Position numbers and translations under genes: made by a program
The notes under the pieces: model-generated
Seen by the model: only the letters and a program-made list of their open reading frames with translations
Told to the model about the DNA's origin: nothing
Database searches by the model: none
Source: Syntrophomonadaceae bacterium
Lineage (GTDB): Bacteria > Bacillota > Syntrophomonadia > Syntrophomonadales > Syntrophomonadaceae
NCBI GenBank assembly: GCA_050949825.1
Contig: JBMNGL010000013.1
Coordinates: 11,038-75,037, forward strand
Length of the DNA stretch: 64,000 nt
Reading direction: 5' to 3'
In this document: positions 2,444 through 56,474 of the stretch, one piece after another
Position numbering within the stretch: position 1 is the first letter of the stretch
Layout: the number at the start of each line of letters is the position of its first letter

Positions 2444-3256
2444 ATGGATAAATTTTGGCGCTGGGTGATGAACGAAGCCCAGGATGCTGCAGTAAGAACC
2501 CTCTATTTAGAAGGGTATATTGCAGAGTCTTCCTGGTTTGATGATGACATCACCCCCAAACAGTTTAAGAGTGAGCTTTATGGTAGCGGATCTGGTTCTG
2601 ATGACATCATCGTAAAGATACATTCGCCGGGGGGAGACTGTTTTGCTGCAGCTCAGATCTATAACATGCTTAAAGAATATCCCGGCAAGGTCAGCGTCCA
2701 TGTGGATGGTCTGGCAGCCAGTGCGGCATCGGTAATCACCATGGCCGGAGATGAAGTATGTGTTTCTCCCCTTTCAGTAATTATGGTCCATAATCCTGCC
2801 ATGTTTATTGCAGGAGAAGTGGCGGATCTTCAGGTTGGCATTAATTTACTCAGTGAAGTGAAGGAGAGCATCATCAACGCCTACCAAAATAAGACCGGTC
2901 TTTCCCGAACGAAAATTTCTCATATGATGGATGCGGAAACCTGGATGAGTGCCCATAAGGCTATTGAGCTTAAGTTTGCCGACAGGATTCTATATGAGGC
3001 TACCCCTATGGATACGGCGGATCATGGTTTTATCTTTGATCAGCTTACCGTAACTAACACCCTTTTAAAAAAGCTGCCGGGGATTAAAGCCAGGATGCTG
3101 GAGCAGACAGGAAGCAAAGGAGCAGATGAACCCGTAGACAACAAACAGCCTAACGATTCCCGGGAAACACCGGAGCAACCGGTTGAAGCTGATTTAAACC
3201 AGGTACCTGTAAGCCAGCTACAAAAACGACTGAATCTAATTAAAAATTGGAGGTAG
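2444..3256 (+). CDS. ClpP-like (S14) prohead maturation protease
   Basis: HSPGGDCFAAAQIYNML ... VDGLAASAASVITMAGD ... MVHNP. Start placed at ATG 2444 behind aggagg (2429-2434). Listed ORF is 2417..3256. Confidence 0.85.
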   Translation: MDKFWRWVMNEAQDAAVRTLYLEGYIAESSWFDDDITPKQFKSELYGSGSGSDDIIVKIHSPGGDCFAAAQIYNMLKEYPGKVSVHVDGLAASAASVITMAGDEVCVSPLSVIMVHNPAMFIAGEVADLQVGINLLSEVKESIINAYQNKTGLSRTKISHMMDAETWMSAHKAIELKFADRILYEATPMDTADHGFIFDQLTVTNTLLKKLPGIKARMLEQTGSKGADEPVDNKQPNDSRETPEQPVEADLNQVPVSQLQKRLNLIKNWR

Positions 3257-3261
3257 AGAAA

Positions 3262-4455
3262 ATGAAAAGAATTCAAGAATTAAGAGAAAAACGGGCCACT
3301 GTCTGGGAACAGGCCAAAAAGTTCTTAGACGAACACCGTCAGGAAAACGGCCTTATTTCTCCGGAAGACACCGCAGTCTATGAAAAGATGGAAGAAGAAG
3401 TGGTCAATCTGGGCAAAGAAATAGAACGTCTGGAGCGCCAGGAGATGATGGATAGGGAGTTAGCTGCCCCTATTAATAAACCTTTGACTACCCGTCCGGA
3501 GAGGATGGAAGAAGAAAAGACCGGCAGAGCCACCGATCAATATAAGGCTGCATTTTGGGGGGCTATGCGAAATCGGGTAAACCCAACAGTGCAAAATGCC
3601 CTTAGGATAGGCGAGGATACGGAAGGCGGGTATCTGGTCCCGGATGAATACGAGCGTCAGCTGATTCAGGCTTTAGAAGAAGTCAATGTGATGAGAAAGC
3701 TCTGCCATGTGATTTCCACCAGCTACGGGGATAGGAAGATTCCGGTAGTGGCCAGTCATGGCCAGGCTTCCTGGATGGATGAGGCGGGACCTTTTGTAGA
3801 AAGCGATGATAGCTTCACCCAGGTTAGCCTTTCAGCCTATAAGTTGGGGACCATGCTGAAAATCTCTGATGAACTTTTGCATGATGCCTTCTTCGATCTG
3901 GAAGGATATGTGTCCACCGAATTTGCCAGACGAATTGGAGCTGCGGAAGAAGAGGCTTTCCTTTTGGGAGACGGCAGCAGCAAGCCCACAGGGCTACTTC
4001 ATACCACTGGAGGAGCTGAGGTTGGTGTCACAGCGGCCAGTCCCACCGCTATTACCATGGAGGAAGTAATTGACTTATTCTTTAGCCTAAAAGCACCTTA
4101 TCGTAAAAATGCTACCTTTGTGGTCAACGATGCAACGGTAAAAGCGATCCGCAAGCTGAAAGATGGGCAGGGCCAGTATTTGTGGCAGCCTTCCATCACT
4201 CAAGGAACCCCGGATACAATCTTAAACCGTCCAGTGGTAACCTCTCAATATATGCCGACAGCAGCCGCCAGTGAGAAAACCATCCTCTTTGGTGATCTCA
4301 GTTATTACTGGATTGCTGACCGTCAGGGCAGAACTTTTAAACGCCTGAACGAATTGTATGCAGCTAATGGGCAAGTGGGATTTTTAGCCTGGCAGCGCCT
4401 TGATGCTAAGCTAATCCTTAGCGAATCTATAAAGGTTCTTCAGCAGAAAGCCTAA
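3262..4455 (+). CDS. Major capsid protein, HK97 fold
   Basis: N-terminal charged coiled-coil (delta-domain-like) followed by GGYLVPDEYERQLIQAL and a C-terminal capsid core. ATG 3262 lies behind ggaggtag. Listed ORF is 3247..4455. Confidence 0.9.
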   Translation: MKRIQELREKRATVWEQAKKFLDEHRQENGLISPEDTAVYEKMEEEVVNLGKEIERLERQEMMDRELAAPINKPLTTRPERMEEEKTGRATDQYKAAFWGAMRNRVNPTVQNALRIGEDTEGGYLVPDEYERQLIQALEEVNVMRKLCHVISTSYGDRKIPVVASHGQASWMDEAGPFVESDDSFTQVSLSAYKLGTMLKISDELLHDAFFDLEGYVSTEFARRIGAAEEEAFLLGDGSSKPTGLLHTTGGAEVGVTAASPTAITMEEVIDLFFSLKAPYRKNATFVVNDATVKAIRKLKDGQGQYLWQPSITQGTPDTILNRPVVTSQYMPTAAASEKTILFGDLSYYWIADRQGRTFKRLNELYAANGQVGFLAWQRLDAKLILSESIKVLQQKA

Positions 4456-4517
4456 GCGAATAAATAAGGGCGGGTAGTCTATTTGGCTACCTGCCTAATT
4501 TTTGAGGAGGTAGAACC

Positions 4518-5165
4518 ATGGGATACAACACAAAAAACTATACCGAGCAAGGCGGTGAGAAAACTGTCATTGGCGGGATTTTGGAAGTTAAAGCGGGGGG
4601 TTCTTTGGAAATTAAAGAAGGAGCATTTTTAAAGGGACTCCCTATAGCTTCAAACCAGGCCAACAGCACCGCCGCCACGGTCAGTGATCTAAAGAATAAC
4701 TTCAACGACTTGCTGGCCAAGCTTAAGGATGCCGGTTTCATGGAATTTGACACCTGGAACTTATCCGTTGCTAAAGCACCGATAACTACTGAGGGGCAGC
4801 CGATAACAGAAAATCAAAGCAAGGTTAGTGATGTTACCATTGCCGATGGCATAATCAGTGTTACGGTTGATGTGGAAGGGCTGGTGGAGTTTGATAGTTC
4901 TAATCCTGCACAAGGCATTCATAAATGGGTAGGGATTTTAATATCTACCGGACTTTCTGATATCACCAAAATCAAATACAACGATTATCAGCTAACACAG
5001 GCTGATGTAACAGAAGCAGCCAGTGTAGGCGGCACAGACGGAGATATCATTATGTGGCTAAAATGTGATGAGATTATAGAAACCCCTAAGCTCTTTACGC
5101 TGTGGTCTTCCGGCTATGAAGAAACCGAATTTATGGTTGAAATAGTGGCTCCAGCAGTGGAATAA
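4518..5165 (+). CDS. Hypothetical phage head-associated protein (head fibre / decoration-like)
   Basis: 215 aa. SD gaggagg is upstream. The N-terminus MGYNTKNYTEQGGEKTVIGG resembles head-fibre-type proteins. The call rests mainly on position after the capsid gene. Confidence 0.4.
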   Translation: MGYNTKNYTEQGGEKTVIGGILEVKAGGSLEIKEGAFLKGLPIASNQANSTAATVSDLKNNFNDLLAKLKDAGFMEFDTWNLSVAKAPITTEGQPITENQSKVSDVTIADGIISVTVDVEGLVEFDSSNPAQGIHKWVGILISTGLSDITKIKYNDYQLTQADVTEAASVGGTDGDIIMWLKCDEIIETPKLFTLWSSGYEETEFMVEIVAPAVE

Positions 5166-5174
5166 GGAAAGGAT

Positions 5175-5492
5175 GTGGCGGAGATGACACTACTTGAAAA
5201 GGTTAAGGCCAACCTTATTTTAGACCATGACAGTGATGATGAGTTACTGGAGATGTATATCGCCGCCGCTATTTCCTATGCAGAGAGCTTTCAACATTTA
5301 AACCCGGGAACCTATGAACAAATGCCAATGTCAGCTACCACCCAGCAGGCTGTCATTATGCTTTCATCTCACTTTTACGAATCCCGGGATGGCTCTACCG
5401 GCGGTTTCTTCGGCGATAACGTTAAGGCCTCGGAGCAGGTCTGGAACGCTGTTCATCTTCTTTTGCGCATGGGAAGGGAGTGGAAGGTGTGA
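5175..5492 (+). CDS. Head-tail connector protein (gp6-like)
   Basis: 105 aa. The pattern LEKVKANLILDHDSDDELLEMYIAAAISYAE is typical of gp6-like connectors. Position fits the head-tail joining module. Confidence 0.65.
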   Translation: MAEMTLLEKVKANLILDHDSDDELLEMYIAAAISYAESFQHLNPGTYEQMPMSATTQQAVIMLSSHFYESRDGSTGGFFGDNVKASEQVWNAVHLLLRMGREWKV

Positions 5493-5606
5493 AAAAAACC
5501 GGGTCTGGCCGGCAAAGAAAAAGACAGAAATGTTGCTACCGAAAAGGCAGACACAAGAATCGCAACCATGGATACGATGAAGCCTTAAAAAAAGGCGGTG
5601 AAATAG

Positions 5607-5936
5607 ATGAGCTTTGGGAAAATGATAATCCTGGTGGATATTATCGAGACTACCACCAGCCAAGACGAAGAAGGCTTTGTGAAGAAGGAAGATAACATCA
5701 TCGCCAGTACGCGGGCATACCGGGAAGAACGTAACCCTTCCCGGAAATGGGTTAACCTGGCTGCCTACACCGAAGCCGATGCTTTGTTCCAGTTGCGGGT
5801 GATTCCTGACCTTGAGTTGAAAGCTGGAATGATTCTGGTCTGTGATACTGGGAGTTACACCATCATCAATGTAGAAAAAGTAAAAGGACTCTACCTTGAG
5901 GTTTTGGCAAAAAAGCTGGAACCCACCAAGGCATAA
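5607..5936 (+). CDS. Head closure / head-tail adaptor protein
   Basis: 109 aa with small beta-rich adaptor-like sequence (RAYREERNPSRKW ... FQLRV ... YTIINVE). SD aaaggcggtg is upstream. Confidence 0.6.
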   Translation: MSFGKMIILVDIIETTTSQDEEGFVKKEDNIIASTRAYREERNPSRKWVNLAAYTEADALFQLRVIPDLELKAGMILVCDTGSYTIINVEKVKGLYLEVLAKKLEPTKA

Positions 5937-5953
5937 AAAGGGGAGGGGGAGCA

Positions 5954-6385
5954 TTGGCAAGACTAAGTTATAAAATGCCGGAAGATTTTTTATTAAAAGT
6001 ATCAGCTCTGGCAGATAAAACCGATGTAATTATACCCAAGGTGCTTGAGGAAGGCGGCAAGGTGGTAGCGGATAAAGTGAAAGCTAACCTACAGGCAGTG
6101 GTGGGCAGCAATCTGAAAACAAAACCTCGCTCCACCGGGGAACTTATAAAAGCTTTAGGGGTAAGCCCGGCAGGGCTGGATCGAAACGGCAATTATAACG
6201 TCAAGGTGGGCTTTGATGAACCGCGGGATGATGGGGAGTCCAATGCCAAGATTGCCAATATTTTAGAATATGGTAAATCCGGTCAACCTGCTAAGCCATT
6301 CTTAAAACCAGCTAAAACCGCCAGTAAAAAAGCCTGTATTGAAGCTATGAAAAGGAAGCTGGATGAAGAAATCAATAAATCCTAG
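5954..6385 (+). CDS. HK97 gp10-like tail-component protein
   Basis: 143 aa with TTG start behind gggagggggag. GESNAKIANILEYGKSGQPAKPFLKPA matches the HK97-gp10 family signature. Confidence 0.65.
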   Translation: MARLSYKMPEDFLLKVSALADKTDVIIPKVLEEGGKVVADKVKANLQAVVGSNLKTKPRSTGELIKALGVSPAGLDRNGNYNVKVGFDEPRDDGESNAKIANILEYGKSGQPAKPFLKPAKTASKKACIEAMKRKLDEEINKS

Positions 6386-6397
6386 GAAGGGAGGCAG

Positions 6398-6754
6398 ATG
6401 GTGAACAGCTATAACAGTATTTTAAGAGACATCAAAAAAACGTTAACGAGTACCGGGCTTCCTATGGAAACCGGAGTGTTCAGCGACCAGGCTCCCGAAG
6501 AGTATCTAGTAATTACTCCTATGAATGATCTCTTCGACCTTTTTGCTGACAATCTGCCTCAGATGGACCTACAGGAAGCCCGGATTTCTTTGTTTAGTAA
6601 AGGCAACTATATGACCAGAAAAAACCAGGTAGTGGCTTTACTCATATCCAGTGACTTTACTATTACTGACCGCCGCTATATAGGAGAAGAGGCGGAAACA
6701 GGCTTTCACCATATAGCTATTGATGTGGCTAAAGAATATGCAGTAACCCTATAA
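6398..6754 (+). CDS. Tail completion / tail terminator-like protein
   Basis: 118 aa. Called only by position between the gp10-like protein and the major tail protein. SD gaagggagg is upstream. Confidence 0.4.
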   Translation: MVNSYNSILRDIKKTLTSTGLPMETGVFSDQAPEEYLVITPMNDLFDLFADNLPQMDLQEARISLFSKGNYMTRKNQVVALLISSDFTITDRRYIGEEAETGFHHIAIDVAKEYAVTL

Positions 6755-6797
6755 CCGGCTAGCTTGCCGGATTTTATTTTGAAAGGAGAGATGGATC

Positions 6798-7682
6798 GTG
6801 GCAACCATAGGATTGGATCGGCTATATTACGCCAAAATCACCGAAGATACAAATGGTGATGAAACTTACGGCACTCCCCAAATATTGGCCAAGGCCATGA
6901 CCGCTGAGCTAAGTGTAGAGCTTATTGAAGCAATCCTTTATGCAAATGATGCGGCATCTGAAGTAGTTAAGGAATTTAAAAGCGGGTCTTTAAGCCTGGG
7001 GGTGGATGATATAGGGCCTTTAGTGGCCCAGGATTTAACCGGATGTAAAATTGACAGCAACAATGTAGTAGTTTCCAGAAGTGAAGATGGAGGTAGTCCG
7101 GTAGCTATCGGGTTTCGGGCTAAAAAGTCTAACGGAAAATATCGTTACTTTTGGCTTTACCGGGTTATCTTTAGTGTTCCCGCCACCAGCCTTGCCACCA
7201 AGGGGGATTCTATTACCTTTAGCAGTCCCACCATAGAAGGTACCGTTTTTAGGAGAAACAAACTGGACGGGGAGAATAAACATCCCTGGAAAGCAGAAGT
7301 GACGGAAGGAGATAACGGAGTGGCAGCTTCCACCATTACCAATTGGTTCGCATCTGTTTATGAACCCGACTTCACCGAGGTGACCCCCACCATTACCATT
7401 ACGACTCAACCGGCAGCCACAACGGAAGTGACCGCAGGCAGCATTACCGGCAGCCTTTCGGTGGTAGCCAGCAGCAATACCAGTAACCCGGTTACTTACC
7501 AGTGGTATGAAAACACCGTGGACAGTTCCACCGGCGGCACAATTATCAATGGGGAAACCTCAGCCAGCTTTGACATTCCTACTGATTTGGTAGCTGGTAC
7601 CTATTATTACTACTGTGTCTTAAGCTTAAGTGGAGCTGAGAGCGTGACCACCACTGTGGCTACCGTGGTAGTTTCAGAATAA
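6798..7682 (+). CDS. Major tail protein with C-terminal Ig-like domain
   Basis: 294 aa. The N-terminal 190 aa look like a phi13-type major tail protein (IGLDRLYYAKITED). The C-terminal T/S-rich segment TYQWYENT ... GTYYYYCV looks like an Ig-like decoration domain. Confidence 0.75.
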   Translation: MATIGLDRLYYAKITEDTNGDETYGTPQILAKAMTAELSVELIEAILYANDAASEVVKEFKSGSLSLGVDDIGPLVAQDLTGCKIDSNNVVVSRSEDGGSPVAIGFRAKKSNGKYRYFWLYRVIFSVPATSLATKGDSITFSSPTIEGTVFRRNKLDGENKHPWKAEVTEGDNGVAASTITNWFASVYEPDFTEVTPTITITTQPAATTEVTAGSITGSLSVVASSNTSNPVTYQWYENTVDSSTGGTIINGETSASFDIPTDLVAGTYYYYCVLSLSGAESVTTTVATVVVSE

Positions 7683-7699
7683 GGATGGGAGGATGACTT

Positions 7700-8116
7700 A
7701 TGACTAATGAAGTAAAACCGTTAGAAATAGATGAGGCTTCTGAAGAAAGAAGTACAGTGATAACCATTGGCAATAGGGAGTACCGGCTGATTCTCACCAC
7801 GAAAGCGACCAAAGCCATTGCCAAGCGTTATGGGGGGCTAGAGAAGCTTGGCGAAAAACTCATGAAAACAGAAAACTTTGAAATGGCCTTAGACGAGATT
7901 ATTTTTCTGATTACTTTGCTGGCCAATCAGTCCATCCTAATCCACAATCTCAGGAACAAAGAGGATAAGCAGGAACTCTTAACCGAAGAAGAGATGGAGC
8001 TTTTGACCTCGCCTTTGGATCTGGCCCAGTACAAAAATGCTATTATGGCCAGCATGTTGAAGGGCACCAAAAGAAATGTGGAGAGTGAAGAATCAAAAAA
8101 CGAGGCAGTCGGGTAA
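7700..8116 (+). CDS. Tail assembly chaperone (gpG-like, 0-frame product)
   Basis: 138 aa acidic protein between the major tail protein and the tape measure. It ends 13 nt after an A_AAA_AAC slippery heptamer. Confidence 0.7.
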   Translation: MTNEVKPLEIDEASEERSTVITIGNREYRLILTTKATKAIAKRYGGLEKLGEKLMKTENFEMALDEIIFLITLLANQSILIHNLRNKEDKQELLTEEEMELLTSPLDLAQYKNAIMASMLKGTKRNVESEESKNEAVG

Positions 8117-8140
8117 GTGAGGAGGCACTCTTTACCCGAC
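8095..8140 (+). promoter_or_regulatory. -1 programmed ribosomal frameshift signal (slippery heptamer plus stem-loop)
   Basis: A AAA AAC at 8095-8101 is in the correct X_XXY_YYZ phase of ORF 7700..8116. After a 6-nt spacer there is a perfect 9-bp stem, gtcgggtaa (8108-8116) with ttacccgac (8132-8140), and a 15-nt loop. Confidence 0.7.
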
Positions 8141-8148
8141 TCCTTTAT

Positions 8149-10619
8149 GTGCGCCCAGATAGGGCATTGCCTAATGTGGTGTAGGAGCCACTCCGAACGA
8201 TAACTCGGGAAATAACCCACTTAACCGAAAGGCGAAAGCTGGCACGGGAACAAAGCACGGTGGGAAAGCGGTAAGTCACCTTAAAACACATTGGTGCGAC
8301 TGAACTGCAATATTAAGCGGATATAAGGTTTAAATTGGGTTTATTGAATGCGAGTTTCCAGTTTCTGTTAGTCGTAGGCGGAGGAAATGTGTTTGTAACC
8401 TCTGGAGCAGGAAAGGTTGTCATTAATAGAGGGACAATCGGTTATCAAATATCCTGTTCAACACGCAAGAGAACTTGTGATAACGAAACGAAAGCAAAAC
8501 CGACAATCCGCACATACCTGTAGGCAGTGTTAACTGGGGATACCCTAAACAGGAACGCCACAACGCGGCTATAGCCACAGGGCTTGAATACCCTGCATGG
8601 GTACGGAGCGTTCGTAGTAGTCCGAGGACGGGAAAGCCGTCCACATGGCGAAGGGACGCAGTTGTTGTGTACTAAAATCAAAATTGATTAGGGAGGAAAA
8701 CCTCATATGCAACCAACAATAGAGATTTTAGCAAGAATCAGCGTAAACTCTAACGCAAACAAGGATGAAGTTTTTACAAGACTTTACCGCTATTTGTTGC
8801 GACCAGATATCTACTTTGAAGCATATAAAAACCTGTATGCCAATAACGGAGCAGCGACCCGTGGCGTGGATAATGATACCGCAGACGGTTTTAGCGAAGC
8901 GAAAATTGATAAAATAATAAAATCGCTTAGTGATGAAACCTACACGCCAAAATCAGTGCGAAGAACTTATATCGATAAGGGAAACGGGAAAAAGCGACCG
9001 TTGGGCATTCTGACTTTTACGGACAAACTGGTGCAGGAGGCACTTCGTATGGTACTTGAAGCTGTGTATGAACCGTCTTTCTTGGATTGGTCGCACGGTT
9101 TCAGACCGAACCGAAGCTGTCATACCGCGCTGGCAAGTTTGAAGAAAGAGTTTACAGGGGCGCGTTGGTTTGTCGAGGGCGACATTAAGGGTTGTTTTGA
9201 TAATATCGACCACGCCGTTTTAATAAGTATGCTGAACAAGAAAGTGAAGGATGCACGAATAGTCAAACTGATTTACAAATTTTTAAAAGCAGGTTATATG
9301 GAAAATTGGCAGTACCACAACACCTACAGCGGTACTCCGCAAGGCGGAATTATTTCGCCGTTGCTTGCCAATATCTATCTGCACGAACTGGATAAGTTTG
9401 TAATGATGTTAAAGGCAGAGTTTAACAAGCCGAGAGAAACCCATTCCACGTATGAATACGGGGTTATAAGAAGAAAGATGAAAAAACTCCGTAAGGAAAT
9501 CGAAAACGCGGACGGTGACAAGCGTGGGCAATTGCTTGATGAATATAAAGCAACTCGCGCACAGTTATTACAAACCCCCGCGAAGTCACAAACTGATAAG
9601 AAAATCAAGTATATCAGATATGCAGACGATTTTTTGATTGCCGTCAACGGAAGTCGTGAGGACTGTGCGGAAATCAAGCGCAGGTTATTCGAATTTATCG
9701 GACAGACCTTGAAAATGGAACTCAGCGACGAAAAAACGTTGATTACCCATAGCAATGATTACGCGCGGTTTTTGGGCTACGATGTACGTGTGAGGAGAAA
9801 TGGAAAAATTAAGCGCGGCGGTAAAAATGGTTGTACTAAACGCACGCTTAGCAATAATGTGGAACTCTTAGTGCCCTTTGAAGATAAAATCAATAAATTC
9901 CTGTTCTCAAAGGGTGTTGTTAAACAACGGCTGAACGGTACTGTCTACCCAACGCACAGACCCGCCCTGGAACGATTGACCGACCTTGAAATTGTGATGA
10001 CCTACAACGCCGAACTCCGTGGAATATGCAATTATTACAGATTAGCCAGCAACTATAATAGTCTTGGGTATTTTGCATATCTGATGGAATATAGTTGTTT
10101 ACGAACGCTTGCAGGAAAACACAAATCAAAGGTTAGCAAAATCAAGGAGAAGTTCAAAGACGGTCATGGCAAATGGGGTATTCCTTATACGACTAAAAAG
10201 GGTGAAAAGCGCTGTTATTTCGCTAAATTAGCCGATTGCAAAGGGGCAAAATTCTGTACGGATATATTGCCAAACGCTTTTGTAATCCACATGAGCGCAA
10301 GAAATACCTTTGAAAACAGGTTGAAAGCGAAAGTTTGCGAGCTATGTGGGACAACGGATGCAGAACACTATGAAATTCATCACATTCACAAGGTAAAAGA
10401 CCTCAAAGGGAAAGAGCCTTGGAAAGTGGCGATGATAGCCAAACGGCGAAAAACTATGGTGGTTTGCAGAAACTGTCATAACACAATTCATCATTAAGAG
10501 TTTAACTGACCAAACAACAATGGGGAGCCGGATACCTTGAGAGGGGTAAGTCCGGTTCCGGGAGAGGACTGTGCAAACCTACCGTAGAAATGCGGCAAGG
10601 CGGCATTTTCCTACTCCAC
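8149..10619 (+). mobile_element. Group II intron, class IIA (Ll.LtrB-like), complete, with intron-encoded protein
   Basis: The 5' end gtgcgcccagataggg and the following ...aaccgaaaggcgaaagctggcacgggaacaaagcacgg... closely parallel the Ll.LtrB 5' region as I recall it. Domain V is gagccggataccttgagaggggtaagtccggttc (10525-10558). Domain VI ends ...cctactccac at 10619. Removing 8149-10619 restores an open frame. Confidence 0.9.
8707..10497 (+). CDS. Group II intron reverse transcriptase / maturase with C-terminal HNH endonuclease domain
   Basis: RT blocks (RPLGILTFTDKLVQEA, GTPQGGIISPLLANIYL, IRYADDFLIAV). Maturase X region (YNAELRGICNYY). C-terminal CELCG ... HHIHKV ... CRNCHNTIHH is an HNH/Zn motif. 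Confidence 0.95.
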   Translation: MQPTIEILARISVNSNANKDEVFTRLYRYLLRPDIYFEAYKNLYANNGAATRGVDNDTADGFSEAKIDKIIKSLSDETYTPKSVRRTYIDKGNGKKRPLGILTFTDKLVQEALRMVLEAVYEPSFLDWSHGFRPNRSCHTALASLKKEFTGARWFVEGDIKGCFDNIDHAVLISMLNKKVKDARIVKLIYKFLKAGYMENWQYHNTYSGTPQGGIISPLLANIYLHELDKFVMMLKAEFNKPRETHSTYEYGVIRRKMKKLRKEIENADGDKRGQLLDEYKATRAQLLQTPAKSQTDKKIKYIRYADDFLIAVNGSREDCAEIKRRLFEFIGQTLKMELSDEKTLITHSNDYARFLGYDVRVRRNGKIKRGGKNGCTKRTLSNNVELLVPFEDKINKFLFSKGVVKQRLNGTVYPTHRPALERLTDLEIVMTYNAELRGICNYYRLASNYNSLGYFAYLMEYSCLRTLAGKHKSKVSKIKEKFKDGHGKWGIPYTTKKGEKRCYFAKLADCKGAKFCTDILPNAFVIHMSARNTFENRLKAKVCELCGTTDAEHYEIHHIHKVKDLKGKEPWKVAMIAKRRKTMVVCRNCHNTIHH

Positions 10620-10760
10620 TATGGGACGGTACAATTGAATCGCCGGGAAGAAGAAGTCTGGCTGATGCCTATTGGTTATTTGATGGATTTGTGGGAATGT
10701 CATAAGCAGTTTATTGTGGGATTGCCAAGCCTAAAAAAATCGCCTTCATTGATGAGGTAA
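10620..10760 (+). CDS. Exon 2 of the gpT (-1 frame) extension of the tail assembly chaperone
   Basis: Joining 8148 to 10620 continues the -1 frame as ...EEALFTRLLY|YGTVQLNRREEEVWLMPIGYLMDLWECHKQF... up to TAA 10758-10760. The segment is too short to appear in the ORF track. Confidence 0.55.
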   Translation, partial: YGTVQLNRREEEVWLMPIGYLMDLWECHKQFIVGLPSLKKSPSLMR

Positions 10761-10881
10761 TTCCTGAGTGGCTTTGATTTTTCCGATTCAAAGTTACAAT
10801 ATTTTACCATAAAGGATGAAAAAATCTTCAGACTCGAAGGACACCGGAGGAGATAAACTGGAATAGCGTACTCTTTTGCCG

Positions 10882-10934: not shown

Positions 10935-11183
10935 ATGCCTAATATAAAACCGGTGTCAGATTTAAGAAGCTATAACGAAGTTCTAAAAGATATTGATGTA
11001 GGGGAACCTGTATTTTTAACTAAAAATGGCCGGGGGAAATATGTAATTCTTGATATTAAAGAATATCAAAAGAGCCAGGCTACTATTAAACTTCTATCAA
11101 AGTTGTTGGAGGCGGAAAAAGCTATAAAGACAGGTGAAGAGTGGCTTTCAGAGGAACAAGTCAGGAAAGAACTTGGAGTGTAA
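10935..11183 (+). CDS. Type II antitoxin, Phd/YefM family
   Basis: 82 aa. N-terminus IKPVSDLRSYNEVLKDIDVGEPVFLTKNGRGKYVILDIKEY is the Phd/YefM fold signature. Its stop is 3 nt before the toxin start. Confidence 0.8.
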   Translation: MPNIKPVSDLRSYNEVLKDIDVGEPVFLTKNGRGKYVILDIKEYQKSQATIKLLSKLLEAEKAIKTGEEWLSEEQVRKELGV

Positions 11184-11186
11184 TTT

Positions 11187-11528
11187 ATGCACAAGCTAAG
11201 AATTAACCCTCTGGCAAGACAAGATTTGCTTGGTATTAAAGAATACATTACAAATGATTTGGATAGTCCCGGTGCTGCTATTAATGTAATTTCAAAAATT
11301 GTTGAAAGCTATGAAAAGCTAAAGGAGTTTCCGCTACTAGGTATTGAATTGTCACCAAAAATCAACATCGAAACCGATTATCGATATTTGATTAGTGGCA
11401 AGTATATAGTGTTTTATAAATTAGATGATACCTATGTGTCTATTTGTCGAATACTTTATGCCAGACGAGATTATATAAGAATACTTTTTGAAGAACCTCA
11501 ATTTACGGAGGATACAGATATGGAATAA
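11187..11528 (+). CDS. Type II toxin, ParE/RelE superfamily
   Basis: 113 aa. LRINPLARQDLLGIKEYI ... YRYLISGKYIVFYKLDDTYVSICRILYARRDY is typical of ParE-like toxins. It is tightly coupled to the upstream antitoxin. Confidence 0.8.
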   Translation: MHKLRINPLARQDLLGIKEYITNDLDSPGAAINVISKIVESYEKLKEFPLLGIELSPKINIETDYRYLISGKYIVFYKLDDTYVSICRILYARRDYIRILFEEPQFTEDTDME

Positions 11529-11647: not shown

Positions 11648-13825
11648 GTGGCAGATTCTTTTGGCCTTAAAATCGGAATTGAAGGAGAAAAGGAATTTAA
11701 AAATGCCCTAAGGGAAATCAACCAGAGCTTTAAGGTGCTGGGTTCAGAAATGAATCTGGTCACATCTCAGTTTGACAAGCAGGATAAATCCATTCAAGCG
11801 ATAACAGCCAGAAACAATGTACTAAATAAAGAGATTGAAGCACAGAAGGAGAAAATCAGCACCTTGGAAGCTGCCCTAAAAAACGCCTCCGATTCCTTTG
11901 GTGAAACAGATCGAAGAACTCAGAACTGGGCTACCCAGCTTAATAATGCCAAAGCAGAACTTAACAATATGGAACGAGAGTTGGAGGAGTCCGCCGCCGA
12001 TGCGGACAAACTTGGCGACGAGCTGGAGGAAACAGGTAAATCTGCAGATGGTGCTGGCAGTAGGTTTGAGAAACTAGGCGGTATCTTAAAAGGTGTCGGA
12101 GCGGCAATGGGTACAGTGGCCGTCGCAGCCGGTGCCGCTGCGATAAAACTCGGCAAAGAGGTGGTGCAACAGTTCGGTGAACTGGAACAGAATCTTGGCG
12201 GGTCGGAAGCCGTGTTCGGCCAATATGCCGCGTCAATCCAAAAGACGGGCGAGGAAGCCTACAAGAACCTCGGCGTGTCACAGAGTGATTATCTGGCTAC
12301 CGCTAACAAGATGGGGGCCTTGTTCCAAGGCTCCGGCATTGAACAGCAAAAAAGCCTTGAATTGACGGAAAAGGCAATGCAGCGGGCGGCAGATATGGCA
12401 TCTGTGATGGGCATTGATATGCAGATGGCTTTGGATTCTGTTGCGGGAGCAGCCAAGGGCAACTTCACGATGATGGATAACCTTGGCGTTGCGATGAATG
12501 CTACCAACATTGAAGCCTACGCCCTCGCCAAGGGCCTGGATTTCACCTGGGCATCTGCTACAAACGCCGAAAAAGCTGAAGTCGCAATGCAAATGTTCTT
12601 TGAGAATACAGAGCAGTACGCGGGAAACTTTGCCAGGGAATCCACACAAACCATAACCGGCTCCATCGGGTTGATGAAGGCTGCGCTCGGCTCGTTCACA
12701 GCGGGGCTTGGCAACACCAACGCTGACATGACGAAGCTAACACAGAACCTAGTGGACGCTTTTCAGGCGGTGGTTAAAAACATTGTGCCTGTCTTAGAGA
12801 ATATCGTAACTGCACTGCCGATAGCAATGGATGCGATTCTGTCGGCGGTCGGCGATCTGCTTCCTACACTGCTTAATACTGTCACGAATTTGTTTAGCCA
12901 GGTACTGGAAACAATCCTGAACCTATTTCCGGAGCTTATTCCGGCCACCGTTGATGCGATTATGACGATTGTCGGTGCACTAATCGATAACCTCCCGCTA
13001 ATAATCGATGCGGCGGTGCAATTAGTGACCGCTCTTGTAGAAGGCTTAGGCCTTGCTTTGCCGGAATTGATTCCTGCGGCGATGAGTGCGGTGATAACAA
13101 TCGTACAAGGGCTGCTTGAGAACATGGATAAAGTCATCGAGGCGGCTTTTGCCATAATAACTGGACTGGCGGAAGGGCTTTTAAATGCTCTGCCACAGCT
13201 TATTGAGGCGTTGCCTCATATCATTACTAGCATCATTAATTTTATTACAGGAAATCTGCCCACAATTATTGGATTAGGCGTTGAACTTACAATTATGCTT
13301 GCGGCTGGATTAATTCAGGCCCTGCCTCAATTAGTCGCAAGCCTGCCGCAGATTGTGTTCGCCATTATAACTGGCATAGGAAAAGCTGCTGTCTCCATAG
13401 TGGAAATTGGCAGAAATATCATGACCGGTCTTTGGAGTGGAATTGCATCTATGCTAGGCTGGATCCAAAGTAAAGTAAACAGCATGGTAAGCGGTATCGT
13501 GAGCAGTATGAAAGGGGTACTAGGGATCCGCTCACCATCTAAAGTCTTTGCTGGTATTGGTGAAAACATGGGGCAAGGAATTGGAGAAGGGTTTAGTAGT
13601 GCTATGAAAGATGTAGAAAAAGAAATGGCTAGGGCTATTCCTACCGACTTTGATTTAGATATGAATAGTGTAGTCAGCGGGGTAGAAGCCGGCAGCAGCG
13701 GAGCAGTCTTTGATGTGACCATTCCCTTAACCATTGACGGAAATATCTTAACCCGAGTAATTGCCCAGCTGCAGTGGAACCAAAATACGGTCACCGTTAG
13801 AAACCTGGGAGTAGCCGGAGCTTAA
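11648..13825 (+). CDS. Tail tape measure protein
   Basis: 725 aa with GTG start behind gggaggaggtg. N-terminal coiled coil, then a long Ala/Gly/Leu/Ile-rich repetitive helical region (LPxLIxA-type repeats). Position is upstream of the tail tip genes. Confidence 0.9.
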   Translation: MADSFGLKIGIEGEKEFKNALREINQSFKVLGSEMNLVTSQFDKQDKSIQAITARNNVLNKEIEAQKEKISTLEAALKNASDSFGETDRRTQNWATQLNNAKAELNNMERELEESAADADKLGDELEETGKSADGAGSRFEKLGGILKGVGAAMGTVAVAAGAAAIKLGKEVVQQFGELEQNLGGSEAVFGQYAASIQKTGEEAYKNLGVSQSDYLATANKMGALFQGSGIEQQKSLELTEKAMQRAADMASVMGIDMQMALDSVAGAAKGNFTMMDNLGVAMNATNIEAYALAKGLDFTWASATNAEKAEVAMQMFFENTEQYAGNFARESTQTITGSIGLMKAALGSFTAGLGNTNADMTKLTQNLVDAFQAVVKNIVPVLENIVTALPIAMDAILSAVGDLLPTLLNTVTNLFSQVLETILNLFPELIPATVDAIMTIVGALIDNLPLIIDAAVQLVTALVEGLGLALPELIPAAMSAVITIVQGLLENMDKVIEAAFAIITGLAEGLLNALPQLIEALPHIITSIINFITGNLPTIIGLGVELTIMLAAGLIQALPQLVASLPQIVFAIITGIGKAAVSIVEIGRNIMTGLWSGIASMLGWIQSKVNSMVSGIVSSMKGVLGIRSPSKVFAGIGENMGQGIGEGFSSAMKDVEKEMARAIPTDFDLDMNSVVSGVEAGSSGAVFDVTIPLTIDGNILTRVIAQLQWNQNTVTVRNLGVAGA

Positions 13826-18349: not shown

Positions 18350-19735
18350 GTGAGTAATGCGTTGTTGGATGCTGTAGCTACAAAAAATATTAATCCCGGT
18401 TTAGATCAAATGGTGAGTGTGGTTCCAATTTCGGATAAGAATAATTTTGATCAGGCCCCTCGAAAGCCTAGAGTTGCCTCTTATTGTAGAGTGAGTACCG
18501 AAGAAGAGATACAGCTGGGTTCATTGGAAAATCAAATTATCCACTATACGAACCATATCAGATCAAATAAAGAGTGGCAGTTTGTAGGGGTATTCTCAGA
18601 CAGAGGCAAATCAGGGACTAAAACTGGAAGCCGTACCGGGTTTAATAGAATGATCCGTAGAGCCATGGCCGGCGAAATCGATATTATTCTGTGCAAATCT
18701 ATTTCACGGTTTGCGAGAAATGTACTGGACACTCTAAACATTGTAAAATCACTAAGCGAAAAAGGCGTGACAGTAATATTCGAAAAAGAAGCGATAAATA
18801 CTTCGAAAATGTCCAGTTCAATATTGTTGACTGTACTCGCCTTATTTGCGGAGGAAGAGAGTCGGAACATCTCTGAAAACATTGAATGGTCATTAACAAA
18901 GCGATTTGAGAATGGAGAAGTAAGAGCTGTAAAGATACTTGGGTATGATTTCAATAAGGATAAAGAATGGATAGTAGTAGAAAGTGAAGCCGGAATTGTA
19001 AGAGAAGCTTATAGGTTGTTTCTCGAAGGCAAAAGCATGTCGGAAATTGCCGAGATATTCATTGAAAGGGGTTACAGAAAAAAGAATGGAAGAATTGATT
19101 GGGACGGAAGCGGTGTTAGGGGACTTCTAACTAATGAACGCTATACCGGTGATGTGCTTAGCAGAAAGACCTGCACTCTAGATTTTAGAAGCCATAAATC
19201 TGTAGTAAATGATGGTCACAAGCCCCAGTATTATATTGAAAATCATCATGAAGGAATTATATCAAAGGAAGATTTCCAACGGGTTCAAGATATTCTTTCT
19301 CAAAGTGTGTCTACTGCAAAAGGAATTAGGAAAAAAACATATCCCTTATCCAAAAGATTAAAATGCACTAATTGTGGGGCTAATTTTCATCGGCAGGAGA
19401 ATCCAAATGGGAAGGTTGATTGGATATGTAGCACCAGCAAGAAAAGCAAGAAATTATGCAAGATGGAGCCAATCACTCAGGAACAAATTGAAAAATTGCT
19501 AATCGAAGGCTTTTATAAAAGATATGGAATTAATGCTGCTACCGATGGCGGAGAACTAAAAAGGCGGCTAATGAAAGAGCTGATGAATGCTGAAGCGGCC
19601 CGGGACAGGGAACAAAACCTTCTAAGGGTAAAGCTAGAGAAAGTATCTAATAAAAGAAAACAAGGCTGTAATAGACGGTTTAAATATAGAGCCGATAAAA
19701 GAAAAGAGAATTGCTTTAGAAAAGCAAATTGCTGA
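18350..19735 (+). CDS. Large serine recombinase 1 (body; C-terminus displaced by an apparent +1 frameshift)
   Basis: GTG start behind aaggagg. Motifs are ASYCRVSTEEE, SRFARN, ENHHEGII and zinc ribbon CTNCGANF ... C. The last ~30 listed residues (KRKQGCNRRFKYRADKRKENCFRKANC) look like out-of-frame translation. Confidence 0.8.
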   Translation: MSNALLDAVATKNINPGLDQMVSVVPISDKNNFDQAPRKPRVASYCRVSTEEEIQLGSLENQIIHYTNHIRSNKEWQFVGVFSDRGKSGTKTGSRTGFNRMIRRAMAGEIDIILCKSISRFARNVLDTLNIVKSLSEKGVTVIFEKEAINTSKMSSSILLTVLALFAEEESRNISENIEWSLTKRFENGEVRAVKILGYDFNKDKEWIVVESEAGIVREAYRLFLEGKSMSEIAEIFIERGYRKKNGRIDWDGSGVRGLLTNERYTGDVLSRKTCTLDFRSHKSVVNDGHKPQYYIENHHEGIISKEDFQRVQDILSQSVSTAKGIRKKTYPLSKRLKCTNCGANFHRQENPNGKVDWICSTSKKSKKLCKMEPITQEQIEKLLIEGFYKRYGINAATDGGELKRRLMKELMNAEAARDREQNLLRVKLEKVSNKRKQGCNRRFKYRADKRKENCFRKANC

Positions 19736-19970
19736 AAGAGCCACTGATTGGGAGCTATTTGATAGGGATGAAGCCTTCCGAAGAAAGGCACTGGGTAAAC
19801 TGAAAGACCTACAAGGGTCGGTACAATCAATAAATAGAATATTGGATATATCTTTTATGAGAGCCTGGGTGATTCGAATTAAAATCGAGTCACCTTATTT
19901 ATTTACCGTAAAGTGGATTGATGGAAGCAAAACGGTAGCGGGGCAGTTCAGAAGGAGGTATATGTTATGA
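19638..19970 (+). pseudogene. Detached C-terminal segment of large serine recombinase 1 (+1 frame)
   Basis: The frame open from 19638 reads ...KAVIDGLNIEPIKEKRIALEKQIAERATDWELFDRDEAF ... YLFTVKWIDGSKTVAGQFRRRYML and stops at 19968-19970. This is a family-typical LSR C-terminus, and the stop overlaps ATG 19967 of the next gene. Confidence 0.7.
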
Positions 19971-21688
19971 GAATGAATACTCCAGCTGTTGTAAATCCCC
20001 GGGTTCGAGTTATTCCTGCAAAGGTTGAAACAAACAGCGATGGAGGAAATCCAGAAGGGCAGAAAAAGAAGATTGCCGTTTATGCTCGTGTTTCTACATT
20101 TGAAGAGGAACAACAATCAAGCCAGGAGCTTCAAGAAAGCTACTTTAAAGAAATGATTGCCAATAATGAAAACTGGGAATTGTATAAAGTCTATGCCGAC
20201 CATGGAGTTACTGGAACAAATACAAAAAATAGAACCGCCTTTAATGAGATGATTGAAGATGCAAAGGAACAAAAATTCGATTTAATCATAACTAAATCAA
20301 TTAGCCGGTTTGCTAGAAATACCCTTGATTGTTTGACCTATGTACGTATGCTAAAAGGCTTAAAAAAGCCCGTGGGCGTGATTTTTGACCGTGAACGAAT
20401 TTCGTCTTTGGATAGTAGCTCCGAAATGCTACTTACAATAATTGCCAGTATTAGCGAAGAAGAGAGCAAAACCATTAGTGCCAATGTCTGCTGGGGCGTA
20501 ACCAAAAGATTTTCTCAAGGTATCCCCCATATCCCCACAACTTATTTTCTAGGATATGACGAGGATGAAGAAGGCAATCTTATTATAAATGAAAAGGAAG
20601 CTAAAACGGTAAGACGGATTTATAGAGAACTTCTTGCCGGGAAAGGAACCGTGCTAATTGCAAAAGGATTGACCAAGGATAAAGTTAAAACCGCCAGGGG
20701 AAACACCAAATGGACCAGCGATTCGGTTCTTAAGCTGCTACGAAATGAGAAATATGCCGGGCATGCCCTTTGCCAGAAGTCGGTCACCCTTGACCCCCTT
20801 ACCCATAAACGGGTGAGAAATAAAAACCACAAACCTCAATACTTTATCAGGAATCATCATCCGCCTATTATTTCGGAAGAAGACTGGAATGAAGCTCAAA
20901 AAGAACTAGACCGGAGAAGTAAAATGCTCCACGACCCGGGTGGAAAATATCGAAGGGCTTATAGCGGCAGGTCACCTTTTTCTAATATGTTTTTTTGCGG
21001 AACATGTGGAATGCCAATAATCCGGAGAAGAATTACTTCAAGAAATAAAGAAAAAAAATATCACTTTACTACTTGGCATTGCCGGGTAGCATCCCATAAA
21101 TATAAAGCAGATTTCAAATGTAACGCCAAGTATATCTGGGAAGAGGTTATTGAGAGGGCGTACAATGAAATGCTGCTTAAAATGTCCAAGGAAATTGACC
21201 AGATCCGTGCCGAAGGTGAGGAAGCCATAGAAGATGTAGATCTATCAGCAGATGAGACCAGAAGATTGAAAGAGCTGGATGAGATTATCAAACGGATTGG
21301 CAATCGAATAAGTGAGCTATCCATGAGGGAGAGCGTAACCAATGATCAAATTTATGATGCTACCTTAAGGAATCTAATTTACGAGTCGCAGATATATCAG
21401 CAAGAATATGAGGCACTGCTTAAAAGCCAGGACGAAAGCAACTATATAAGAAAGAACCTGGAGACGCTGATTAAACACCTACAAACCATAGAGGATTATG
21501 AAACCTTTAATGCCAACATCTTTAAAGAGATTGTAGAAAGCGGTATTTTTCATGAAGATTACGAAATAGAATTTATATTTAAATGCGGCATAAGAAGAAA
21601 AGCCTACGGATGGAGAAGAGGGAAAAACCCGGTGGAACCAATGGAATCAGGCATTGAGCAAGAAATAGACTATAAAAACAGCCTGTAA
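19967..21688 (+). CDS. Large serine recombinase 2
   Basis: 573 aa. Motifs are IAVYARVSTFEEEQ, SRFARN, RNHHPPII, zinc ribbon CGTCGMPI ... C, then a coiled coil and C-terminal beta motif YEIEFIFKCG. Confidence 0.9.
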   Translation: MRMNTPAVVNPRVRVIPAKVETNSDGGNPEGQKKKIAVYARVSTFEEEQQSSQELQESYFKEMIANNENWELYKVYADHGVTGTNTKNRTAFNEMIEDAKEQKFDLIITKSISRFARNTLDCLTYVRMLKGLKKPVGVIFDRERISSLDSSSEMLLTIIASISEEESKTISANVCWGVTKRFSQGIPHIPTTYFLGYDEDEEGNLIINEKEAKTVRRIYRELLAGKGTVLIAKGLTKDKVKTARGNTKWTSDSVLKLLRNEKYAGHALCQKSVTLDPLTHKRVRNKNHKPQYFIRNHHPPIISEEDWNEAQKELDRRSKMLHDPGGKYRRAYSGRSPFSNMFFCGTCGMPIIRRRITSRNKEKKYHFTTWHCRVASHKYKADFKCNAKYIWEEVIERAYNEMLLKMSKEIDQIRAEGEEAIEDVDLSADETRRLKELDEIIKRIGNRISELSMRESVTNDQIYDATLRNLIYESQIYQQEYEALLKSQDESNYIRKNLETLIKHLQTIEDYETFNANIFKEIVESGIFHEDYEIEFIFKCGIRRKAYGWRRGKNPVEPMESGIEQEIDYKNSL

Positions 21689-21834
21689 CCCTGGTAGCCT
21701 TAAATAGCTAAAATATTTAAAGCCTATATAAACAAGAAAACTCCGTAAACCTATAAAGATTGTACTTGCAATAGTTTGATATGGATGCAAACATACGAAC
21801 AAATGCAATCGTTGATAGGTGGGGAGTTTTTTTT

Positions 21835-24800: not shown

Positions 24801-25500
24801 AGTAAAAATCACTCCAGAGGAAGAAAAATTAAGAGAAAGGTTAAATTTAGAAAGAGAAGAATTAAATCAAAAGTTATATGCAGAAGTAGAAGGAGAGCTT
24901 AATAAAAAAGGCAAAGATGCAAAACAAGTAGATAAATTGATTGATAAGATTATGAAGTTACGACAACAGATAAATACGTTTACACAAAGAGAAGAACAGC
25001 TTGAGTTAATTGAAGAAGATATAGCTGCCATAATGAAGAGTTTAAAAGACTATAAAGATAATAAAAAAACAGGCACAGGATATTATATGAAAGCGCCTAA
25101 ATTTAATAAAGAAATATTTGAAGAACATATAGAAAAAGGAACCGTTGCTGGTGATGGGAAAATTATATATAAATTTAAATCGGGATTTGAGTGGGCAGCA
25201 CCAATTGACTATTCAAACTTTCAAATAAAAGCAAGAAGAAAAATTGCGGCAAAGAGAGCTAAAGAAAAAGCAGAGTATTTAAAGGGGCCTGAGGTAACAG
25301 AATTATTAGAATATTGTATAGAGCCAAAGACTTTTAAAGAAATGCAGAATTTTTTAGGTAAGTATACAGCCTATCATTCTTTTAGAAAACACATACTTGT
25401 GCCTTTGTTAAAACAGGGAATTGTAAAGATGACCATACCGGATCAACCCGTTCATAGATTACAAAAATACTATTCGGTTGACAGGAAGAAACGCAATTGA
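21835..25500 (+). CDS. Fused double large serine recombinase (modules 3 and 4 in one ORF)
   Basis: The frame is uninterrupted from 21781 to 25500. ATG 21835 behind aggtgggga is preferred as the start. There are two full sets of catalytic, recombinase and zinc-ribbon motifs, with Ser codons at 21955-21957 and 23680-23682. An internal SD plus in-frame ATG lies at 23501-23514. Confidence 0.85.
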   Translation: MDEKNKAMWVHTLWDPLEKIDQSPLHSKKDGIKVAAYCRVSLDSLNISESLESQVSHYTHFIGRKKNWKFVGIYFDNLVSGRKASLRQGFTRMLRHCDEGKIDLILVKNVSRFSRNAKELIEIVERLKEINVTVYFEMENIESTRSDTTYLLNIFASIAQAEIEAISYNIKWSYEKRTLEGKADIGDMYGYDKAEVNGETIIKINEEAAQIVREIFVMYLNGYSSYKIAGELSRRNIKTKQGKKLWNSSTITGILSNISYTGDILVRKTIQDMLTNKIRSAKGIEDQYFIENHHPAIISKEVFEQVQEEIKKNGKPSSPYTRRYNPLLKRVHCGNCGYKFNRNKNRGKDYFKCVSKMTNKSLCVSPVIKEDDIIKIMLGGFKERFDIENPKIIKMLQRFLIRINQNDHFEFHRLKALNQIQLAKSLRGVEYTDEDIEQMEESYKEFEKELVKIEDDRKFRLEAIKWLDTVENFEAFENQATIEYMRGWIKEITIYSLNDYKIHWIDGKNTEIGSCISIKPELEEPLVDENLIELQIKGSFEENKITLEKGGDIQSKEGVMVQAAKRLKSEKLKSEKKSDLMFLNIKKQISNSVVMQTTVPIPSKKKLKVAAYIRVSTESDQQEISLKTQYTYFLYYILRDPQYILVDIYIDDGKSGLTTKGRTEFNRLIDDCVDSKVNLIITKSLSRFARNTVDTLKCLNLLKNLDPPVNVWFQKENLYSLDEKSDLLIKLLSVIGQEESLNMGESIAWAKRSLAQRGIVNPGRLAYGYYYGENKEWLINKEEEKVVKRIYKEYQEGKKIQKIAKGLESESIPSPSGRKNWDPNTIKDILISETYRGNYVFQKFYNSSGLIKKKTKNQGELPMYFIENHHQPIIDSEEWENIQEIMKIRDKERQDKIEKYLPDTKKNEAFSKKLYCEKCHSYLGYIRQVDRGKNNKGNRHWRCYSARKGKGCDSIHLKQEYIEENFSQCLMDIRHNEAFRKYINQYKESVKITPEEEKLRERLNLEREELNQKLYAEVEGELNKKGKDAKQVDKLIDKIMKLRQQINTFTQREEQLELIEEDIAAIMKSLKDYKDNKKTGTGYYMKAPKFNKEIFEEHIEKGTVAGDGKIIYKFKSGFEWAAPIDYSNFQIKARRKIAAKRAKEKAEYLKGPEVTELLEYCIEPKTFKEMQNFLGKYTAYHSFRKHILVPLLKQGIVKMTIPDQPVHRLQKYYSVDRKKRN

Positions 25501-56017: not shown

Positions 56018-56029
56018 GGGAAAAAACAA

Positions 56030-56286: not shown

Positions 56287-56474
56287 ATGTTATGAGGTCA
56301 ATGATAGGGACGATAAACAATCTCGACTAAAATCATCATTATGTCGATTGCTGTTGAATGGATTGAATAGTGGTCGGCGTTAGGCGTCCGTTATTCCTAA
56401 TCTTAATTTTAGACATATTACAACAGAAAAATTATTATTCGTTCTGCATTAAGTGGATAAGGGGGGCTATATTA

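Follow-up and report, generated by a model that had tools for sequence, protein, structure and literature searches.

A probable Ll.LtrB-like group IIA intron at a conserved site in the frameshift-dependent extension of a phage tail assembly chaperone gene

The stretch of DNA analysed here (the window, 64,000 nt) comes from a Syntrophomonadaceae bacterium (GenBank assembly GCA_050949825.1, contig JBMNGL010000013.1, positions 11,038 to 75,037 of the forward strand). Positions 8149-10619 of the window are very probably an intact, recently mobile group IIA intron of the Ll.LtrB type, lodged at a conserved homing site in the T extension of a phage tail assembly chaperone gene. Judging from the sequence, the T extension would be translated only by ribosomes that have shifted into the -1 frame, and the phage would be temperate, a Heliusvirales-like siphophage with gut Bacillota as hosts. 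Among bacterial models of group II intron mobility Ll.LtrB is the main one, and the window intron is, by its alignment, a new member of that lineage. Its parts are as follows.

8149-10619, forward strand: group IIA (Ll.LtrB-like) intron, 2471 nt, from 5' GUGCG to 3' ...CUACUCCAC; exact ends from comparison of L066 with L010 (see below)
8137-8141, forward strand: intron-binding site 2 (IBS2), CGACU, positions -12 to -8; complementary to exon-binding site 2 (EBS2)
8142-8148, forward strand: IBS1, CCUUUAU, positions -7 to -1; seven pairs with EBS1, one of them a G-U at -4
8182-8184, forward strand: TAG stop of the -1 frame in unspliced RNA, 11 intron codons in, read from the sequence
8370-8374, forward strand: EBS2, AGUCG, placed by alignment to Ll.LtrB domain I
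8422-8432, forward strand: 11-nt loop with delta (UA, 8424-8425) and EBS1 (AUAGAGG, 8426-8432), placed by homology to Ll.LtrB
8707-10497, forward strand: intron-encoded protein, 596 aa, with reverse transcriptase (RT), maturase X, D and HNH endonuclease parts and YADD intact (RVT_1, Intron_maturas2, AI2M-like_HNH; TIGR04416)
10525-10558, forward strand: domain V, 34 nt, with AGC triad, from the RF00029 alignment
10560-10619, forward strand: domain VI and 3' end, with a candidate branch-point A at 10613, 7 nt from the 3' splice site

The class of the intron emerges from direct alignment with Ll.LtrB. The two are about 70% identical in nucleotide sequence over the full length of the window intron (1-2471), the comparison being with 2492-nt copies in Lactococcus relaxase genes, and in the 5' 560 nt the identity is 411 of 576 columns (71%). 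They are nearly equal in length (2471 vs 2492 nt) and begin alike with GUGCGCCCAGAUAGGG, the 11-nt delta/EBS1 loop and the EBS2 loop occupy equivalent positions, the G-U at -4 of the IBS1 pairing is found in both, the stretch containing the Shine-Dalgarno sequence and domain IVa is almost identical, and the candidate branch-point A is at the same distance from the 3' end, 7 nt, as in the Ll.LtrB copy used for the alignment. The open reading frame (ORF) at 8707-10497 aligns to LtrA residues 1-596 (E=3e-249), retains both YADD and the HNH cysteines and histidines, and contains domains PF00078, PF01348 and PF21368; LtrA is also its best PDB match, at 832 bits compared with 146 or fewer for class C and other RTs. 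An earlier note on this DNA, made from the letters alone, had proposed the group IIA class, and the nucleotide identity, the LtrA-like protein and the homologous positions of the EBS and delta loops bear it out. The covariance scan that it suggested found domains V and VI at 10523-10619, with the whole RF00029 model covered (54.6 bits, gathering score 40, E=5.8e-08).

Codon 102 of the intron protein (9010-9012) is CTG, encoding leucine, where LtrA and the other intron variant have the proline of RPLGIP. The leucine variant is probably tolerated, because it recurs in eight independent contigs, which represent at least two exon contexts.

Both exons can be paired with the intron in the expected manner. 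EBS1 and IBS1 form 7 bp and EBS2 and IBS2 form 5 bp, while delta (UA, 8424-8425) pairs with exon-2 positions +1/+2 (UA; delta', 10620-10621) at all occupied sites. When EBS-exon matching was read by eye from a domain I alignment of ten related intron families, Ll.LtrB among them, the EBS1 loop was complementary to the family's own 5' exon in nine of the ten, and the EBS2 loop was complementary in those families that were inspected. The comparison provides independent support for the EBS assignment.

The interrupted gene lies between those for the major tail protein (on its 5' side) and the tape measure (on its 3' side), in the same order as in loci L001-L004. The relevant features are listed below.

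6798-7682, forward strand: major tail protein gene (phrog_88; TIGR01603 maj_tail_phi13), directly 5' of the chaperone gene
7700-8116, forward strand: tail assembly chaperone G ORF, 0 frame, 138 aa, TAA stop at 8114-8116; phrog_2115 'tail protein'
8095-8101, forward strand: slippery heptamer A_AAA_AAC for -1 programmed frameshifting; alignment columns 4-10 (AAAAAAC) invariant
8101-8148, forward strand: T exon 1, 16 codons of the -1 frame (RGSRVSEEALFTRLLY), read from the sequence
8107-8141, forward strand: frameshift-stimulating hairpin, 10 conserved bp, arms 8107-8116 and 8132-8141
10620-10760, forward strand: T exon 2 as read in the window, 46 codons plus TAA at 10758-10760; delta' UA at 10620-10621
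11648-13825: tape measure gene (phrog_58)

Tail assembly chaperone genes reportedly use a -1 programmed frameshift of the lambda G/GT type. The window cassette resembles that arrangement: two ORFs overlap in the interval from the major tail protein gene to the tape measure gene, G has a slippery heptamer close to its end, and the T part lacks its own start codon. It differs in that a hairpin supported by covariation lies 3' of the heptamer, and in that the T part is apparently split by a self-splicing intron. In an alignment of 65 distinct homologous sequences the heptamer AAAAAAC is invariant; the L201-L210 lineage has A_AAA_AAG in place of A_AAA_AAC. The hairpin starts 5 nt 3' of the heptamer and has the G stop codon (TAA, 8114-8116) inside its 5' arm. 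Over the same 65 sequences 98.8% of its cells are paired, with compensatory changes at 4 pairs, compared with 22-55% in controls in which the partner was slid by 1-3 columns. In the window the stem can be extended to 8102-8145, and it folds with a minimum free energy of -26 kcal/mol (z=-5.8). The -1 frame opens at 8089, after a TGA at 8086-8088, and has no start codon (ATG, GTG or TTG) in 8089-8148, so ribosomes would get to T only by frameshifting, and to the conserved part of T only if the RNA has also been spliced. The chaperone family is large, with at least 8000 members (protein clusters), all named 'hypothetical', and at least 556 confirmed IMG/VR loci; the spliced T segment matches phrog_10988.

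One JGI metagenome assembly contains a contiguous ORF (P0010, 201 aa) that equals the predicted G-T fusion (...ESKKRGGRVSEQALFTRLIYYGTV...). Either this allele is naturally fused or its A-run contains a homopolymer error. The window also has a PhdYefM antitoxin gene (10935-11183) and a ParE toxin gene (11187-11528), placed after the chaperone gene and before the tape measure gene; the pair is also found in L012 and L014, and is absent from phage records PV036457.1 and PV036459.1.

The intron has the 5' GUGYG and 3' AY-type ends of a group II intron, here GUGCG at 8149 and ...CAC at 10619, and its exact boundaries are fixed by comparison with a site that lacks it. The intron begins 47 nt after A_AAA_AAC, 7 nt after the last conserved hairpin pair, and at a codon boundary of the -1 frame. 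Removal of 8149-10619 joins ...FTRLLY to YGTVQLNRREEEVWLMPIGYLMDLWECHKQF..., with 46 further codons in the window, and the predicted ligated-exon junction is ...CUCCUUUAU joined to UAUGGGACGG. A tblastn search with the spliced T segment found 18 of 19 phage records contiguous across this join, and the intron-less DNA of PV036459.1 runs continuously through it (...CCCGACTCATTTAT TATGGCACC...). One exact pair of filled and empty sites consists of the intron-bearing L010, a Bacillota metagenome-assembled genome (MAG), and the intron-less IMG/VR contig L066. These are 97.7% identical over 3.9 kb upstream and 98.3% identical over the 290 nt available downstream, and their alignment breaks exactly at the intron ends. 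Moreover, loci that encode one identical G protein (P0007) have the intron in L205, L207 and L209 and lack it in L201-L204, L206, L208 and L210. Within phage lineages, then, the intron is polymorphic for presence and absence. The best 80 of at least 556 IMG/VR relatives are intron-less.

Most of what the earlier note had said of the insertion stands. Its coordinates for a codon-boundary insertion in the -1 frame, 47 nt past the slippery site, are correct; the TAG at 8182-8184 does close the unspliced -1 frame after 11 intron codons; and the intron-less homologues (the 18 of 19 records, PV036459.1 and L066) match the exon join that it predicted. Two details need amendment. The distance from the hairpin, given as 8 nt, is 7 nt from the last conserved pair (8 nt corresponds to a stem end at 8140). 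The join of FTRLLY to 46 further codons is right for the window as it reads, but relatives have 51 codons and the window's C-terminus is rendered aberrant by an insertion discussed below.

How would the chaperone proteins be made from such a gene? Late transcription would produce a pre-mRNA from which G could always be translated, because the G stop codon is 33 nt upstream of the intron. Full GT would need both a -1 frameshift at 8095-8101 and precise splicing. On unspliced RNA, shifted ribosomes would produce G followed by 16 T residues and 11 intron-encoded residues.

The case for recent mobility comes from comparing intron copies with their surroundings; exact-protein look-ups and pattern scans supplied the additional copies. 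At the same codon boundary, in at least seven exon contexts or phage lineages, stand copies that differ at only 0-2 of 2471 nt; those in other exon contexts are L007, L009, L010, L016 and the L205 group, and the window's close relatives are L012-L015. The window intron has no differences in 2471 nt from those of L012 and L014, whose flanks differ by 5-6%, and a single difference in 2471 nt from those of L004 and L010, with mismatches at more than 35% of the aligned flank positions. L004 is phage IMGVR 15682261 (PV036457.1), a member of Ca. Heliusvirales. Its flanks are about 68% identical to the window, and immediately beside the intron the match extends for only 6 nt upstream and 2 nt downstream. 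Introns this similar, in flanks whose divergence ranges from 5% to more than 35%, argue for recent spread. The occupied target sites also pair well with the intron: each of the seven unique ones has one mismatch or none to EBS1, EBS2 and delta, as do only 27 of 71 unoccupied ones, a comparison that is rough in that the sites are related to one another. Retrohoming, as read from the sequences, would fit the clean L010/L066 insertion pair. The intact RT-maturase-HNH ORF had led the earlier note to suggest that the intron may still be mobile, and both this pair and the near-identity of the copies uphold the suggestion. Intron ribonucleoprotein made during lytic growth or induction would then invade related phages resident in the same cell.

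The idea that the window is phage PV036457.1 itself, for which a 100% intron match had been put forward, was rejected, as the flanks are only about 68% identical and the gene layout differs. In PV036457.1 the intron (L004 5997-8627; PV036457.1 49083-51713) is annotated as four small minus-strand hypothetical coding sequences plus a 'reverse transcriptase', a 61-aa ORF starts within the intron 3' end, and neither the intron nor the GT fusion is annotated. The GT product was unannotated in all four of the deposited records examined.

Several considerations weigh against the picture of an intact, recently mobile intron in a chaperone gene. Splicing, frameshifting and lariat formation are all things that we infer from DNA. 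The Rfam D1-D4 models have no match in 8050-10700, even at E<0.1, and therefore the class assignment rests on the Ll.LtrB alignment; the missing match seems due to incomplete coverage by the models and not to a difference in structure. The label 'chaperone' rests on gene order and the frameshift cassette, and so must be read as a prediction. Sequence and profile searches of Pfam, NCBIfam and PDB with G or GT gave no match, an AlphaFold2 model of G (30-sequence alignment) reached a predicted local distance difference test score (pLDDT) of 51 and is unusable, and an exact-protein look-up found no protein identical to the window's G. Two further points, the state of exon 2 in the window and the history of the L205 copy, each give rise to an alternative explanation.

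The condition of exon 2 is affected by the following.

10716-10718, forward strand: 2-nt insertion (TG or GT), found in the window only
10733-10739, forward strand: A_AAA_AAA heptamer in the incoming (shifted) frame, read from the sequence

The window reads TTTATTG[TG]GGATT, compared with TTTATTGGGATT, without the extra 2 nt, in its nearest relatives L012, L014, L015 and L020; look-ups of the frameshifted exon-2 ORF and a DNA scan did not find the insertion allele elsewhere. In all homologues ...ECHKQF is followed by x-G-[LI]-[AS]-[KR]-P-..., and the protein ends ...ID[DEG][VI]IPxxx and a stop. In the window the last 15 codons (VGLPSLKKSPSLMR) stem from the insertion, and the conserved T C-terminus, comprising the last ~20 residues (GIAKPKKIAFIDEVIPEWL, stop at 10775-10777), is out of frame, so that the C-terminus of GT would be aberrant even from spliced RNA. 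The insertion could be either a mutation or an assembly error. A -1 slip at 10733-10739, five codons past the insertion, would restore the last 12 residues (...KKIAFIDEVIPEWL and a stop), which is speculative. We also considered a second programmed frameshift at this A7 run and judged it unlikely, given that there is no downstream structure (z=0.66) and that relatives need no such event.

Taken with the leucine in RPLGIP, the exon 2 frameshift means that the window copy may sit in a defective prophage. The copy would then be a dead end, with the insertion preventing a functional GT and the intron a passenger in decaying DNA. This is possible, if somewhat unlikely. In its favor, the insertion occurs only in the window and destroys a C-terminus (...GIAKPKKIAFIDEVIPEWL) kept by every relative, the intron protein has leucine at a conserved proline, and transposases and other mobile elements lie just past the prophage end. 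However, it is difficult to reconcile decay with an intron that is identical over all 2471 nt to the copies in relatives with intact T, with a leucine variant that recurs across independent contigs and exon contexts, and with other late genes that remain open. The insertion itself could be an assembly error, and the A_AAA_AAA run could give partial rescue.

The second alternative concerns how the intron moves. Perhaps its main route of spread is not RNA-based retrohoming but exchange between phages infecting the same cell, through ordinary homologous recombination or double-strand-break repair, in which flanking exon sequence travels along. The evidence comes from two JGI metagenome loci, L205 with the intron and L204 without it, which are 100% identical over 4948 nt upstream. 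Past that stretch they diverge at -1 (C/T) and +2, and 7 differences fall in the next 146 nt, while the first ~75 nt of L205 exon 2 are the same as the window's exon 2. This co-conversion indicates that recombination between phages also moves the intron, and that this event was probably not classical retrohoming. The phages are also mosaic, and the exon-2 tail of L013 differs. As the main route of spread, recombination is nonetheless unlikely. The L010/L066 flanks are identical around a clean insertion, the window and PV036457.1 are identical for only a few nucleotides on either side of an intron matching at 2470 of 2471 positions, and the occupied sites are those that match EBS1, EBS2 and delta. 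The empty L204 allele, TTTAC/TTTGG (slash, insertion point), is a poor match to EBS1 and delta, and may be a homing-resistant variant, to judge by that mismatch.

The window intron has many sister introns elsewhere. The 16-nt 5' end shared with Ll.LtrB (GTGCGCCCAGATAGGG) occurs in 103 IMG/VR viral contigs, and the 5' exons of these sister introns fall at a few conserved late-gene sites.

Portal protein site: after ...VLHIPGLG[FY]DG, ~40 loci
Major tail protein start site: after MATIGLD, ~25 loci
Two G sites: after ...TKEIA and after ...ALDEI[IV][IV]
Two T sites: the window's T site, and a second in the hairpin loop

Capsid-like sites are also among the sister-intron targets. The window's own portal site (between 1614 and 1615) and major tail protein site (between 6818 and 6819, after codons 1-7, MATIGLD, 6798-6818) are unoccupied. 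At the second T site, the L135 intron (193-2677, 2485 nt; IMGVR_UViG_3300033161_000210) separates ...GTCGGGTAAGTGATGAGGAGTTA from TTTACCCGAC...; in this type, also present in L155, the insertion point is 14 nt upstream of the window's and parts the hairpin loop from the 3' arm, so that the frameshift hairpin would form only after splicing. In the Bacillota MAG contig L009 (JBMNKX010000007.1), a single chaperone gene holds two group II introns (reverse complement 2705-5163 and 5415-7885): one in G, between ...ALDEII and WLITLLANQ, with its own 594-aa protein, and one in T of the window type.

Why should the frameshift cassette attract introns? The site probably owes its colonisation to a double constraint on its DNA, from the hairpin 3' arm and from the invariant FTRLxYYG codons: many phages conserve such DNA, and it offers a lasting homing target. 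The position does create a potential conflict between two RNA structures. IBS2 lies wholly in the hairpin 3' arm (and, in the window, IBS1 8142-8145 falls in the extended stem), and therefore the hairpin and exon binding exclude each other. One might speculate that ribosomes, on reaching the G stop codon in the 5' arm and terminating there, could melt the stem and so allow splicing.

A bolder reading would make the chaperone frameshift cassette a recurrent homing target in which splicing and frameshifting are physically coupled, with splicing gating or tuning the supply of GT and the ribonucleoprotein acting in competition between phages; on sequence comparisons we regard this combination as distinctly improbable. 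More doubtful still is a related proposal of adaptive placement, in which the efficiency of splicing is coupled to the hairpin and so adjusts either the G:GT ratio or when tails are assembled. The overlap of IBS2 and part of IBS1 with the stem speaks for it, as does the second intron family, represented by L135, that splits the hairpin itself. On the other hand, most family members do without an intron (the best 80 of the IMG/VR relatives mentioned above), one lineage has both intron-bearing and intron-less alleles, and sister introns occupy portal and major tail protein genes, where such logic fails. Since these latter genes are heavily translated, the sisters indicate placement by target conservation rather than by regulation. 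Most simply, the intron would be a selfish element on a target of high conservation, with no regulatory role; if it affects the G:GT ratio at all, that is most likely a by-product. Finally, an assembly chimera or a chance resemblance, with no real intron, can be set aside, considering that identical junctions recur in more than 15 independent assemblies (GenBank, IMG/VR, JGI, ENA and Logan).

Elsewhere in the window, three consecutive large serine recombinase genes (461, 573 and 1239 aa) occupy 18350-25500 at the apparent prophage end; the 1239-aa protein has two resolvase/recombinase units and a Fic-like C-terminal domain. Beyond them are a Mutator-family transposase gene (27430-28656), an Abi_2 gene (28865-30028, reverse strand) and an rve/Mu-type transposase gene (31993-33348, reverse strand). 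A cobalamin riboswitch (56026-56206; RF00174, 110 bits) lies upstream of a 1269-aa ORF (56370-60179), in a region that looks like host DNA.

It was only in 2025 that group II introns in phages were recognised and first surveyed (PMC12350094). Among the examples in that survey are IIA introns, and one intron interrupts a 'minor tail protein' gene in phage c-st. The window case resembles those examples in that a group II intron interrupts a gene for a conserved phage protein and is validated by intron-less homologues and EBS/IBS pairing. The main text of the survey does not contain 'tail', 'chaperone' or 'frameshift', and two of its supplementary files mention only the c-st minor tail protein. 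In contrast to the present case, the survey gives no population-level evidence of one intron moving among many phages. Group I introns in the capsid and tail genes of Cluster J mycobacteriophages (PMC3706429) likewise are self-splicing introns that essential late structural genes must remove. They differ in ribozyme class, in using a homing endonuclease rather than an RT ribonucleoprotein, and in that none is reported inside a frameshift extension. Prophage-borne introns are mentioned in the literature without a tail-chaperone or frameshift context, the literature searched yielded no relevant case of a group II intron together with a tail assembly chaperone or programmed frameshift, and the Heliusvirales paper mentions neither introns nor frameshifts. 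An intron in the frameshift-dependent extension, together with a sister that splits the frameshift hairpin, is a new arrangement of known parts. With respect to Ll.LtrB itself, the host differs: Ll.LtrB resides in the relaxase gene ltrB of Lactococcus conjugative plasmids, whereas the window intron is in a tail assembly chaperone gene of gut Bacillota phages, in a segment translated only after a -1 frameshift, and its EBS sequences fit a different target.

What follows for the biology of these phages and their introns? A close natural relative of Ll.LtrB appears to reside within a late gene that is essential, in the part that would be translated by frameshifted ribosomes alone, with filled and empty alleles within single lineages and near-identical introns in phages that are otherwise ~65-70% identical. 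For annotation, the finding is relevant to records such as PV036457.1, with its intron labelled 'reverse transcriptase' plus small hypothetical ORFs and its GT product overlooked. More generally, these phages may offer a tractable natural system for studying the movement of a retroelement between viruses in co-infections or polylysogens, the way in which a doubly constrained RNA and protein-coding sequence becomes a homing site, and the interaction of splicing and frameshifting on one mRNA.

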